From the NCBI RefSeq assembly GCF_024298765.1, contig NZ_CP101210.1: DNA of 64,000 bases; one strand, given 5' to 3'. Positions 15,867 to 33,086 of the stretch are shown one piece after another. The translations under genes were made by a program, and so were the position numbers. The notes under the pieces are model-generated. The model was not told the origin of the DNA. It did no database searches and saw only the letters and a program-made list of their open reading frames with translations. Source of the stretch: Escherichia coli. GTDB lineage: Bacteria > Pseudomonadota > Gammaproteobacteria > Enterobacterales > Enterobacteriaceae. Each line of letters begins with the position of its first letter. Within the stretch, counting starts at the first letter, position 1.

Positions 15867-16239
15867 TAGTCAAGATTTTCTCGGTTTTGCAAAAGACTGT
15901 CATCAACGTAATGACGAAATCGGCTATCGAAATGCTATAGCAAGATCCTACTATGGCGCTTACCATCATGTCTTGCCTTGTATGGTAAACGGGCCGAAAG
16001 ACAGTCATCAGGGGCTAATCAATTATTTGCAGGGCGATGCTTCAAGAGGAAGTGAAGTATATGAAGCTAGATATCTAAAAGGGATTAGTTTTATCCTGAG
16101 TCAACTTAAAGCTCAGAGGATTGTTGCAGACTATCGACTTGATCAATCGGTCACTTCTAAACAGTCTGAAGTTGCGATTCTAACAACTGAGAGGCTCTTT
16201 GCTAAGTGTACGGAAATGCTTAAATCGAGAGCCTCCTAA
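15850..16239 (+). CDS. Hypothetical protein (129 aa), overlaps upstream gene by 17 nt; contains an R-x6-H dyad (RSYYGAYHH)
   Basis: Overlapping start implies translational coupling; followed by a terminator hairpin at 16246-16270. Confidence 0.5.
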   Translation: MHMPVNSQDFLGFAKDCHQRNDEIGYRNAIARSYYGAYHHVLPCMVNGPKDSHQGLINYLQGDASRGSEVYEARYLKGISFILSQLKAQRIVADYRLDQSVTSKQSEVAILTTERLFAKCTEMLKSRAS

Positions 16240-16245
16240 TTGATA

Positions 16246-16270
16246 AAGCCACTTAAGTGGCTTTTTTTGT
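16246..16270. terminator. Hairpin plus T-run between the convergent cargo operon and int
   Basis: aaagccacttaagtggcttttttt. Confidence 0.6.
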
Positions 16271-17425
16271 GATATTGCTGGTCGTATTACCGTCATATTC
16301 CTTTAAATATAAACCATAATGACGAAATAACATTTCCGGCCCTTTATGCCCCATTTGAGCTGCAAGCCAAAACAGGTTTGCTCCCCGGCTGATATGGCGG
16401 GTGGCGAATGTATGCCTAGTTTGATATGGATTTCTGTAACGAATACCTGCTTTTCGCAATGTTGGCACCCATGCTTTTTTCCTGATTGCATCAGCACTTG
16501 CCCAAGGCTTATTGGTCTTTGGATCTTCAAAGACAGTAGTATCCTTCATGAATGTAAATGGCTTCTGATTTATCAGCGCCAACATTGCCTCTTCTGTCAG
16601 TTCAACTTTCCGAGTACCTGCTTTTGTCTTTGTCCCTTTGATAACACCGACAACACTTGCGCTCTGGACATGGGCAGTTTTTCCAACAAAGTCGATATCA
16701 CGCCATCGAAGGGCACATAATTCAGAACTACGCAGGCCTGTATGTATAGCGAACCGGAACAGATTTTCCCATTGTTTGTTTCCGGCTGCTGCTAGTAATG
16801 CATCAACTTCTGCTGGTGATAGCGGATCAACTACGTAGCTGCTTTCTGCTTCTGACTTATCACTTTGGTAGCGCGAAGCTGTTACTAACGATACGGGGTT
16901 AATTTGAAGTACCCCATCGGTCACGGCTTCATCAAGTGCTGACCGCAGGAAAGATAACTGGTTGCGAATTGTTTTTAAGGTCGTTTTCTGATTTTGAATC
17001 CACGCTTTCAGGGTTGCTGGTGTTAATTCACTTGCAGGGCAAATGTGAAGTGAGGCTAACGCACTACGGCATTTTTTATAGCCACCAATCGTAGAGGGTG
17101 AAAGTTTTCTTGTTTCGCAGATTTCAAGATATTCGTCCAGGTACATCTTTACCGTTTTGCCTGCAGCAGCATTACCAAAAATTTTCAAACGAGCAGAACG
17201 GGGAAAATATTCTGCATAAATGAATGTTCCCCTTTCGATCTTATTATGGATTTCGCCGAGTGTACGCTCGGCGTATTTAATGTTCTTTGGTGTTACTTCC
17301 AGATTGGAAAGCGGCTCACGACATCTAACTCCTTTGTAGGTGAAAGTTATATTGATCGTTTCTCCCTGGCGGTGTTTCCTGATTGTTACGCCGCGCGGTA
17401 GTTTGAGCAGTTTTGTCTGGCCCAT
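16253..17425 (-). CDS. int: Phage integrase, tyrosine recombinase family
   Basis: 390-aa ORF with C-terminal catalytic region (...HTGLRSSELCALRWRDID...RHTFATRHISRGANLFWLAAQMGH...); adjacent to xis and the att region. Confidence 0.85.
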   Translation of the reverse strand: MGQTKLLKLPRGVTIRKHRQGETINITFTYKGVRCREPLSNLEVTPKNIKYAERTLGEIHNKIERGTFIYAEYFPRSARLKIFGNAAAGKTVKMYLDEYLEICETRKLSPSTIGGYKKCRSALASLHICPASELTPATLKAWIQNQKTTLKTIRNQLSFLRSALDEAVTDGVLQINPVSLVTASRYQSDKSEAESSYVVDPLSPAEVDALLAAAGNKQWENLFRFAIHTGLRSSELCALRWRDIDFVGKTAHVQSASVVGVIKGTKTKAGTRKVELTEEAMLALINQKPFTFMKDTTVFEDPKTNKPWASADAIRKKAWVPTLRKAGIRYRNPYQTRHTFATRHISRGANLFWLAAQMGHKGPEMLFRHYGLYLKEYDGNTTSNITKKAT

Positions 17426-29880: not shown

Positions 29881-29972
29881 TGTTAACTTTGTTTTGTTCC
29901 TTGATTTGATATGTGATGGCCCAATAGATACAAAGCACCTGATTTTGGTGACTCTTTTAAAGGGCTTTACAC

Positions 29973-30293
29973 ATGAAAGATGGTATCTATTTTGTTGTTT
30001 TCAGAAGCAATCAACGTGATTTTGGTAATGGTACCGTAGTTGTCAAAAACAATGCAGTAAATGGCGGAGATTTTGGTTTTACGTATCAGGGAAAAATTGA
30101 CGGTAGCCAACTTATTCTGCGCGTATCGCAGCATGATTTAAATGTCACCTCGGTTTTCCCTGGGGTAAAGAACTTTGAATTGAGTCTTTCTTTGCAGGAA
30201 CGAGGACGTGATTACCTGTTAAATGGATCTGTGGTCGGAATGCCTCAGATGCAAATTTCAATTAGTGCAAAATACATTGGTGATCTGATTTAG
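29973..30293 (+). CDS. Hypothetical moron protein (106 aa), possibly GrlR-like
   Basis: AT-rich by eye; MKDGIY...GGD...YQG pattern resembles GrlR-family proteins as far as I recall (unverified). Confidence 0.4.
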   Translation: MKDGIYFVVFRSNQRDFGNGTVVVKNNAVNGGDFGFTYQGKIDGSQLILRVSQHDLNVTSVFPGVKNFELSLSLQERGRDYLLNGSVVGMPQMQISISAKYIGDLI

Positions 30294-30299
30294 TTTATC

Positions 30300-30335
30300 G
30301 AGATGATAATTGAACCGCCTCCGGGCGGTTTTTTA
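30300..30335 (+). terminator. Rho-independent terminator after the moron gene
   Basis: gaaccgcctccgggcggtttttt. Confidence 0.6.
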
Positions 30336-30385
30336 TTGCCATTTCTATGGTCTGTTCCATCGTAATAACTTAAAGGGAAGCATTA

Positions 30386-30736
30386 ATGCCGCCACGAACC
30401 CCGAAAGCCTGCCGTGTTCGCGGCTGCCGCCATACCACTACTGACCCTTCAGGCTACTGCGAAAGCCACAAAAGCGAAGGCTGGAAGCAATACAAACCTG
30501 GACAATCCCGTCATCAGCGCGGCTACGGTTCGAAGTGGGACAGTATCCGCGCTCGTGTTCTGAAGCGTGACAAAGGCCTGTGTCAGTTATGTCTGCGTGC
30601 TGGTGTGGTGCGTGAGGCGAAAACTGTTGACCACATCATCCCTAAAGCGCATGGCGGCACTGATGCCGACTGTAATCTGCAGAGTCTGTGCTGGCCGTGT
30701 CATAAGGCGAAGACGGCCCGTGAACGGTTGAAGTGA
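30386..30736 (+). CDS. HNH endonuclease (packaging-associated)
   Basis: 116-aa ORF with Cys pairs and DHIIPKAHGG...N HNH motif; directly upstream of the terminase small subunit. Confidence 0.75.
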   Translation: MPPRTPKACRVRGCRHTTTDPSGYCESHKSEGWKQYKPGQSRHQRGYGSKWDSIRARVLKRDKGLCQLCLRAGVVREAKTVDHIIPKAHGGTDADCNLQSLCWPCHKAKTARERLK

Positions 30737-30861
30737 TAATGATTCTCAACTGCCTGAGGGGAGGGGCGGGTCAAATCCCTGCGGCCTGACGTCTTCCGGA
30801 CTGCCCGCCCCATCGTTTTTTTATACCCGCGAAAAATGAAATTTAACCAGGAGTGCCGCAT

Positions 30862-31356
30862 ATGGCTGGAACGGCGGGGCGTTCCGGGCGTCGCCCCAAG
30901 CCAACGGCGCGCAAGGCGCTGGCCGGAAACCCCGGCAAGCGAGCCCTGAATAAAGATGAACCTGTTTTTACGCCCATCAAAGGTGTTGAGCCACCGGAGT
31001 GGTTCGCTGAAGAAGATCTCCCTCTCGCCACGATCATGTGGCAACTGACAACCAAAGAACTCTGCGGTCAGGGCCTGCTGTGCGTGACTGACCTCGCGGT
31101 GCTTGAGCGGTGGTGCGTGGCCTATGAGTTCTGGCGACGTGCCGTGAAAAATATTGCCAGCCAGGGCAACACCATTACCGGTGCAATGGGCGGTATGGTC
31201 AAAAACCCGGAGCTGACCGCCAAGAAAGAACAGGAGTCCGAGATGAGCAGCACGGGGGCAATGCTCGGACTCGACCCCAGCAGCCGCCAGCGTCTGATTG
31301 GCCTGGCGGGGAAGAAGAAAGCCACTAACCCGTTTCTGAAAATCATCGAGTCATGA
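30862..31356 (+). CDS. Terminase small subunit (P27-family-like)
   Basis: ATG 30862 with AGGAG upstream; [31 protein letters not shown]-terminus. Confidence 0.7.
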
Positions 31357-33086
31357 GCCGGAAATCTTACCCCAACGTAAATGCTGCCAATCAGTATGCC
31401 CGGGATGTCGTGCGCGGAAAGATTGTTGCCTGCCAGTTTGTGATTCAGGCCTGCCAGCGCCATCTTGATGACCTGATGGCGGAAAAAAGTAAGTCGTTTC
31501 GTTACCGCTTCGACAAGGACCTGGCTGAACGGGCCGCGAAATTTATTCAGCTGTTGCCGCACACCAAGGGTGAGTGGGCATTCAAACGGATGCCCATCAC
31601 GCTGGAGCCGTGGCAGCTATTTGTGATCTGCTGTGCGTTTGGCTGGGTCAATAAAGGCACCCGGTTGCGCCGCTTCCGGGAGGTGTATACCGAAATCCCC
31701 CGTAAGAACGGCAAATCAGCAATCTCTGCCGGTGTTGCCCTGTATTGTTTTGCCTGTGATAACGAGTTTGGCGCGGAAGTGTATTCCGGTGCCACGACAG
31801 AGAAACAGGCGTGGGAAGTCTTTCGCCCGGCGCGACTGATGTGTAAACGCACACCCATGCTGACGGAAGCGTTCGGGATTGAGGTTAACGCCTCAAACAT
31901 GAACCGTCCGGAGGATGGCGCGCGGTTTGAACCGCTGATCGGCAACCCCGGTGATGGTTCATCACCCCACTGTGCCGTGGTTGATGAATATCACGAGCAT
32001 GCCACCGATGCGCTTTATACCACAATGCTTACCGGGATGGGGGCGCGACGTCAGCCACTGATGTGGGCCATCACCACCGCCGGGTACAACATTGAGGGGC
32101 CGTGCTACGACAAGCGGCGGGAAGTCATCGAGATGCTCAACGGCTCGGTGCCTAACGATGAACTGTTCGGGATCATCTATACCGTTGATGAAGGTGACGA
32201 CTGGACCGACCCGCAGGTGCTGGAAAAAGCCAATCCAAATATTGGCGTGTCGGTTTATCGCGAATTTTTGTTAAGTCAGCAGCAGCGTGCGAAAAATAAC
32301 GCCCGTCTGGCAAACGTCTTTAAAACGAAACACCTCAATATCTGGGTGTCGGCACGTTCGGCGTATTTCAACCTGGTGAGCTGGCAGAGCTGCGAGGATA
32401 AATCACTGACCCTTGAGCAGTTCGAGGGGCAGCCGTGCATTCTGGCCTTTGACCTGGCGCGTAAGCTGGATATGAACAGCATGGCGCGACTTTATACCCG
32501 CGAGATTGACGGTAAAACGCATTACTACAGTGTGGCCCCGCGCTTCTGGGTACCGTATGACACGGTGTACAGCGTCGAGAAAAATGAAGATAGACGGACA
32601 GCCGAACGCTTTCAGAAATGGGTGGAAATGGGCGTCCTGACCGTTACCGATGGTGCAGAGGTGGATTATCGCTACATCCTCGAAGAGGCCAAAGCGGCGA
32701 ACAAAATCAGCCCGGTCAGTGAGTCACCCATCGACCCCTTCGGGGCGACCGGGCTGTCACATGACCTTGCTGATGAAGATCTGAATCCCGTCACTATCGT
32801 CCAGAACTTCGCCAATATGTCCGATCCGATGAAAGAGCTGGAAGCAGCGATTGAATCGGGACGCTTTCATCATGACGGCAATCCCATCATGACCTGGTGT
32901 ATCGGCAATGTGGTCGGCAAAAACATGCCTGGTAACGATGATTTAGTGAAGCCCGTCAAGGAGCAGGCGGAAAACAAAATCGATGGTGCGGTTGCACTGA
33001 TTATGACGATCGGTCGGGCAATGCTCAAAGAACCTGGCGATTTCCTCTCATCTCTTGATCCGGACGATGATCTCTTAATTCTATGA
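31353..33086 (+). CDS. Terminase large subunit
   Basis: 577-aa ORF downstream of TerS with an ATPase-like N-terminal region and nuclease-like C-terminus. Confidence 0.8.

Follow-up and report, generated by a model that had tools for sequence, protein, structure and literature searches.

The HNH-terS interval of an Escherichia coli prophage as a probable cos site of the SfV/SfI type

In this study, we have analyzed a 64-kb stretch of Escherichia coli DNA (the window) and conclude that its interval 30737-30861 very probably harbors the cos of a temperate, HK97-like phage of the SfV/SfI type that resides as a prophage in the chromosome of an enterobacterium. Where the cohesive end lies, and its sequence, have been established by experiment in phage SfI, which is 98% identical over this region; in the window the element is a prophage sequence, to which that assignment is extended on the strength of sequence identity. 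A sequence-only reading of this DNA had proposed a candidate cos site in the interval; the cos site is correct but already known, having been mapped in near-identical Shigella phages.

According to the ORF map, the interval is the entire noncoding gap between the stop codon of an HNH endonuclease gene (TGA, 30734-30736) and the ATG of terS, and both genes lie on the plus strand. The coordinates and the sequence quoted in the sequence-only reading were exact, and Pfam confirmed both of the gene assignments on which it relied (PF01844 HNH and PF05119 Terminase_4). The upstream gene (30386-30736) encodes a 116-amino-acid HNH endonuclease of the terminase-associated nickase type (PF01844, E 5e-15; PHROG 144 HNH), which is 53% identical to gp70 of phiE125 and 35% identical to N.phiGamma, the nickase of phage Gamma (E 4e-16), and is matched over its full length by the GVE2 HNH structure 5h0m (E 6e-12). 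The downstream gene (30862-31356) encodes a small terminase of 164 amino acids that belongs to the P27 family (PF05119, E 4e-21; PHROG 83); it is 99% identical to SfV orf1 and starts at the same ATG. By sequence reading, its Shine-Dalgarno motif is AGGAG at 30849-30853 on the plus strand, 8 nt before the ATG, and this motif is kept in relatives. The gene for the large terminase (31353-33086, plus strand; 577 amino acids) follows, with ATPase and nuclease domains (PF03354 and PF20441).

The ORF map and the Pfam matches together gave the gene order HNH, gap, TerS, TerL, portal, S78 prohead protease, and HK97-type major capsid protein. On the 5' side of the HNH gene lie the genes for a Q antiterminator, two holins, a GH19-type endolysin, and Rz, and an integrase gene is located at 16253-17425. 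The surrounding DNA corresponds to the late genes of a lambdoid prophage, with the head genes ordered as in HK97. Between Rz/Rz1 and the HNH gene, the window also carries a moron-like cassette (29966-30340), consisting of a promoter-like site (29966-29993), an ORF of 106 amino acids (29973-30293), and a canonical intrinsic terminator found by terminator scan (30312-30340); at this position SfV differs in having neither the ORF nor the terminator. The 106-amino-acid product gave a full-length match to Pfam GrlR, a negative regulator of type III secretion, at 26.7 bits, which is below the cutoff of 26.8, and it also matched PHROG 2483, a family of unknown function.

The evidence that carries the assignment comes from the Shigella phages. 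Megablast against phage genomes showed that the HNH-cos-terS region is 97.6 to 98.2% identical to that of SfV, SfI, SfII, and SfIV. When the ends of SfI virion DNA were determined by run-off sequencing and compared with the prophage, a 10-nt gap, 5'-TGCCCGCCCC-3', was observed, and the authors concluded that SfI uses cos packaging (PMC3636060). The same 10-mer is present without change in the window at 30802-30811, and the SfI record itself terminates in ...ccggactgcccgcccc, that is, on the cohesive end. The string gcccgcccc, which the sequence-only reading had quoted as part of a plausible location, turns out to be this cohesive end. In addition, 30795-30861 of the window equals the first 67 nt of SfV and is identical up to the terS ATG. 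The papers on SfIV and SfII report that all four phages have the same cos, and the SfIV authors described precise restriction fragments together with cos packaging. The starts of all four linear GenBank records fall within the interval: that of SfII at 30737, those of SfV and SfIV at 30795, and that of SfI at 30812. The window shares with these phages the 10-nt end, its flanks, and a TerS at 99% identity; it differs from them by three substitutions in a spacer upstream of the cut, where it reads ccctgcggcc rather than ctctgtgacc.

The window has what defines a cos of the SfV/SfI type, namely, the cohesive end TGCCCGCCCC with the shared flanks. It also has the gene arrangement of the HK97-like class: terS lies immediately downstream of the site, the HNH gene is at the other (right) end of the genome, and genes for TerL, portal, protease, and an HK97-fold capsid come after terS. 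The cut-site sequence and an upstream G-rich box (the G-box) each occur once in the 64-kb window. The published cos coordinates are inconsistent with one another: the SfV and SfIV records begin 7 nt before the overhang determined for SfI (30795 versus 30802), and a note in the SfII record annotates as cos the whole stretch that is equivalent to 30795-30861 of the window.

It might be argued that packaging in this phage is headful (pac), or that its cos lies elsewhere, and that the interval is a mere translation initiation region for terS. We regard this explanation as extremely improbable. The ends of SfI were mapped at an identical sequence, SfIV DNA gives precise restriction fragments, phiE125 and HK97 have linear records that terminate at the homologous position, and the conserved blocks of the interval, described below, reach well upstream of the ribosome-binding site. 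The sequence-only reading had itself set headful packaging against its proposal, and for this phage group headful packaging is excluded by the defined ends of SfI and SfIV. Another explanation is that the element is the relic of a cos in a defective prophage, intact in sequence yet unused. The best phage record covers only 61% of positions 16000 to 40000 of the window, as might be expected of such a relic. Nevertheless, the genes for the integrase, Q antiterminator, holins, endolysin, Rz, HNH endonuclease, TerS, TerL, portal, protease, and capsid are all uninterrupted ORFs with family matches, and the cos sequence is the same as that of viable phages. We therefore consider a relic unlikely, and that reading would leave the identity of the element as a cos site unchanged.

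To define the parts of the site, three sets of sequences were compared, amounting together to about 150 loci. The close set contained 79 IMG/VR relatives with TerS proteins that are 99% identical and with 58 distinct gap sequences. The diverse set contained 74 distinct regions upstream of P27-family TerS genes whose products are 55 to 100% identical to a Pseudomonas phage TerS, and it also took in Klebsiella, Moraxella, and phiE125 sequences. The third set consisted of phages with mapped or record-defined ends, namely, phiE125, HK97, D3, and Bacillus phage Gamma.

On the last-packaged (right-end) side of the site, conservation and uniqueness delimit an upstream cos element at 30756-30777 (plus strand), the G-box GAGGGGAGGGGCGGG followed by a TCAAATC tail. 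Apart from GAGGGGAGGGGCGGG, no 15-mer in the 64-kb window has 12 or more G residues or 12 or more C residues, and the box with its tail occurs once in the window versus zero expected occurrences. The G-box is nearly invariant in the 79 close relatives, lies approximately 40 to 45 nt upstream of the cut in 72 of the 74 distinct diverse relatives, and is also found in phiE125, HK97, D3, and Bacillus phage Gamma. The interval had been described as G-rich, which holds locally, since GAGGGGAGGGGCGGG (30756-30770) is 80% G, but not for the interval as a whole, which is only 26% G. The G-box is followed by a variable spacer (30778-30798), the most variable stretch in the 79 close relatives; it has undergone multibase replacements in these relatives and is unconserved in the diverse set.

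The left edge of the overhang, AC/TG (30800-30803; in sequences a slash marks an overhang edge and a caret a nick), was placed by the SfI end mapping, and the bottom strand is predicted to be nicked here between 30801 and 30802 (minus strand, 5'-CA^GT-3'). The cohesive end TGCCCGCCCC (30802-30811, plus strand), a probable 10-nt 3' overhang, is bounded on the right by the top-strand nick between 30811 and 30812; its position coincides with that of the 10-nt ends in phiE125 and HK97. The overhang is nearly invariant and 30812-30861 almost invariant in the 79 close relatives. Within the latter segment, the first packaged bases of the left end, ATCG, a run of seven T residues (30816-30822), and ATA (30812-30825, plus strand), are invariant in the close set, and the T-run is conserved across the diverse relatives too. 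Next comes CCCGCG with an A/T tract (CCCGCGAAAAATGAAATTTAA; 30826-30846, plus strand; +15 to +35 from the cut), which conservation points to as the predicted, cosB-like TerS site. This is the best-conserved block in the 74 distinct relatives, where the sequence CCCGCGAAA is conserved downstream of the cut, and its start at +15 was fixed by anchored alignment. The layout in the diverse set therefore reads, on the 5' side, as the G-box GGGGAGGGGGAGGGTC(A/G)AAAGTCT, a free spacer, and GAC/CG opening a C-rich 10-mer and, on the 3' side, as (A/G)TCG, the T-run, ACACCCGCGAAATTAAAAATT, the Shine-Dalgarno motif, and terS.

Two deviations from this layout were observed. Four IMG/VR relatives carry approximately 13 extra nucleotides, including GGGGGG, between GAC/CGCCCGAACG and the block formed by the T-run and CCCGCG, so that the distance from the cut to the predicted TerS site varies among relatives. 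In Vibrio phage H2 (TerS 49% identical; locus 335-701), the HNH stop codon and the terS start are 6 nt apart, and in this phage the cos must consequently sit within a coding region or elsewhere.

The interval had also been called structured, and this description did not survive analysis. The RNA fold of the interval gave a z value of 0.18 against shuffles, which is no better than shuffled sequence, and a perfect 8-bp inverted repeat (GGGGCGGG at 30763-30770 and CCCGCCCC at 30804-30811) is neither conserved nor covarying. This repeat, followed by the T-run, could be read not as a packaging signal but as the end of the lysis-HNH transcription unit, formed by an intrinsic terminator or by a regulatory hairpin in RNA or DNA. 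The stem is perfect, all G/C, and followed 4 nt later by TTTTTTT, and the minimum-free-energy RNA structure includes the GGGGCGGG/CCCGCCCC hairpin. However, a loop of 33 nt and a T-run offset of 4 nt lie outside the norm for terminators (a loop of 3 to 8 nt and a U-run within 0 to 2 nt), and the terminator scan that found the canonical terminator at 30312-30340 was silent on the repeat and its T-run. The z value of 0.18 and the absence of any Rfam family match in the interval also argue against a hairpin of this kind. Pairing over 8 bp is attained in only 1 of 71 distinct relatives, GGGGGAGG variants of the left arm in close relatives are accompanied by no compensating change in the right arm, and the T-run is conserved even without a stem. 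Finally, late transcription has to run on into terS. Taken together, these data make the terminator or hairpin reading very improbable, and the conserved blocks are best read as parts of a cos site.

The inverted repeat itself is explained by the fact that a G-rich box faces a C-rich overhang. The 64-kb window contains 125 8-mer inverted repeats with loops of up to 50 nt, and a repeat of this kind turned up in 5.4% of the mononucleotide-shuffled versions of the interval. For the 71 distinct relatives, the complementarity of the box to the overhang averaged 4.89 within phages versus 4.78 between phages. Three further structural candidates were rejected: a symmetric protein-binding site at the 8-bp repeat, for which there was no covariation; a G-quadruplex, since the G-box has only three G-runs and a canonical intramolecular quadruplex is impossible; and an IHF site at TCAAATCCCTG, which is a poor match to WATCAANNNNTTR and is replaced by TCGAAAGTCT in the wider family.

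The SfV/SfI-type cos is probably a member of the HK97-like, HNH-dependent class of cos sites with 3' overhangs. The sequence-only reading had argued from the cutting of cos by an HNH endonuclease together with terminase near terS in HK97-like phages, and this premise agrees with the literature: in HK97, the HNH gene and terS flank a site with a 10-nt 3' overhang, and cleavage of cos, which requires the HNH protein together with terminase, is stimulated by gp74 (PMC9410871; PMC11331095). The comparison with HK97-like cos sites that it had suggested also bore out the location, since the HK97 and phiE125 records end at the equivalent position. Like the window, HK97 has its cos between the HNH gene and terS, with a C-rich 10-nt 3' overhang after GAC, a G-run and TCAAATC box approximately 35 to 50 nt upstream, and CCCG with an A/T tract downstream of the cut. 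It differs in that the overhang is CGCCGCCAAA, the CCCG motif sits another 4 nt away from the cut, the HNH gene ends 319 bp before cos, and the HNH protein can be aligned with that of the window over only 22 residues.

The Burkholderia phage phiE125 is closer to the window. Its TerS belongs to the same family (50% identity), its HNH protein is related at the 53% identity given above, and the two sites are collinear base for base through GGGAC/10 nt/GTCG, the T-run, CCCGCGAAA from +15, the Shine-Dalgarno motif, and terS. The phiE125 record ends on the overhang, at a position equivalent to that in the window; the phage differs in its overhang (CGCCCGCTTC, with an AC/CG edge) and in the tail of its G-box, which is GAAAAAGTCT and not TCAAATC. 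The phiE125 ends reportedly have 3' polarity, a finding attributed to Woods et al. in 2002.

The overall plan is also reminiscent of the cosQ-cosN-cosB arrangement of lambda, in which a nicking site is combined with a small-terminase site downstream and an element for the last-packaged end upstream, staggered nicks generate cohesive ends, and gene packaging begins with terS. Lambda, however, has 12-nt 5' overhangs, gpNu1 R-sites, bending by IHF, and no HNH partner, and no sequence similarity was found between lambda cos and the site in the window. A lambda-type cos was therefore rejected: the window has a 10-nt end of probable 3' polarity, an adjacent HNH gene, and a TerS of the P27 family, not of the Nu1 type. 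The G-box resembles cosQ by position, and a corresponding role can only be regarded as putative.

On the basis of these comparisons, it can be envisioned that concatemeric phage DNA is recognized at cos during late infection, when the P27-family TerS would bind CCCGCG and the A/T tract at 30826-30846, just 3' of the cut. TerS would then position TerL and the HNH endonuclease so that two nicks are made 10 bp apart, in the bottom strand between 30801 and 30802 and in the top strand between 30811 and 30812, leaving 10-nt 3' overhangs, 5'-TGCCCGCCCC-3'. Packaging would start at 30812 and proceed to the right through terS, terL, and the head genes until the next cos is reached, and the G-box, on the last-packaged side, may serve cutting at termination. 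The predicted 3' polarity draws on the SfI data and on HK97: a gap in the run-off reads from both SfI ends means that neither template strand has the 10 nt at its 5' end, which points to 3' overhangs.

In HK97, the minimal TerS site spans +15 to +29, CTAACCCGATTTTTT, and both a G:C pair and the A-tract within it are essential (PMC11331095). The position and composition of 30826-30846 mark this segment as the predicted TerS site of the window. This transfer is by analogy only, because the TerS proteins are not detectably related: similarity between HK97 TerS gp1 and the window TerS was undetectable, and gp1 gave no PF05119 match. A search for a solved structure of a P27-family TerS found none.

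The left edge of the overhang is of interest with respect to the division of labor between the two nucleases. AC/CG is found exactly at this edge in 59 of the 74 distinct relatives, which are not phylogenetically independent, versus a background of 0.9% per position. The same edge is found in HK97 and phiE125; AC/TG, the edge of the window, departs from this consensus and is shared with SfI and a few others. Related HNH nickases, N.phiGamma and that of GVE2, cleave at CG^GT (AC^CG when read on the complementary strand), and for the catalytic domain of N.phiGamma a secondary site, ACTG, has been documented (PMC3592412). If the overhang is 3', the break at its left edge lies on the bottom strand at 5'-CG^GT-3' (here CA^GT), which is the strand and the phosphodiester cut by the HNH family. 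We postulate that, of the two nucleases, the HNH endonuclease cuts the minus strand (30801/30802) and TerL the plus strand (30811/30812). Published models, including that of the 2024 HK97 structural paper, allot one nick to each nuclease and leave the assignment open (PMC11331095).

Several observations bear on this proposal. HK97 gp74 and the HNH protein of lactococcal phage sk1 show no sequence-specific cutting on their own. In Bacillus phages of the Wbeta/Gamma type, 9-nt ends have been reported from PhageTerm as 5' overhangs (PMC8878798), a polarity discrepant with the 3' overhangs of HK97 and SfI; with 5' overhangs, the HNH motif of these phages would fall on the wrong strand, despite the common layout. 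Among the other nickase-bearing phages considered in the motif comparison, the GVE2 record is not cos oriented and the Lrm1 junction is ambiguous, and neither phage was informative. The edge in D3 reads GGACAC/CGCGCCCCCA; its cohesive end, which we take to be 9 nt, would put the nick one base off.

These patterns suggest that HNH-dependent cos sites may be modular. The upstream half would comprise the G-box, a spacer of approximately 20 to 25 nt, and AC/CG at the left edge of a C-rich overhang of 9 to 10 nt. This half is common to phages with unrelated TerS proteins, namely, those with P27-family TerS from enterobacteria, Pseudomonas, Burkholderia, and Moraxella, as well as HK97, D3, and Bacillus Gamma. 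In HK97, D3, and Gamma, the G-box and the GAC/ACCG edge are kept and the downstream block is different, and HK97 and D3 have TerS proteins different from that of the window. The G-box and the GAC/ACCG edge are thus common to phages of Gram-positive and Gram-negative hosts. We postulate that the upstream half is tied to the nuclease partners and that the downstream half follows the TerS family. The combined proposal, that HNH-dependent cos sites are modular and that the edge motif is the HNH nick site, with HNH cutting the bottom strand and TerL the top strand, is tentative, and we would put its chances at somewhat below even. No statement of the correspondence between the edge and the HNH nick motif, or of the modular layout, was found in the searchable literature, the coverage of which is incomplete.

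The HNH-cos-terS module is widespread: of 5426 complete E. coli genomes, 1164 carry it, as do at least 590 IMG/VR contigs. For the window, the finding is a matter of annotation, in that the prophage genome ends are fixed at 30811/30812 and packaging is assigned to cos and not to a headful mechanism; with cos packaging, little generalized transduction is predicted. Because the module is common, the cos annotation transfers widely, for example, to the linearization of prophage assemblies or the recognition of cos-bearing satellites. The modular layout and the HNH motif at the overhang edge are the only part of these results that may be new. If true, the assignment of the two nicks to HNH and TerL would answer the question left open by the 2024 HK97 structural paper (PMC11331095), and the comparative pattern of G-box, AC/CG edge, and TerS-specific block provides a cheap, testable hypothesis on how HNH endonucleases and TerL share the nicking of cos.
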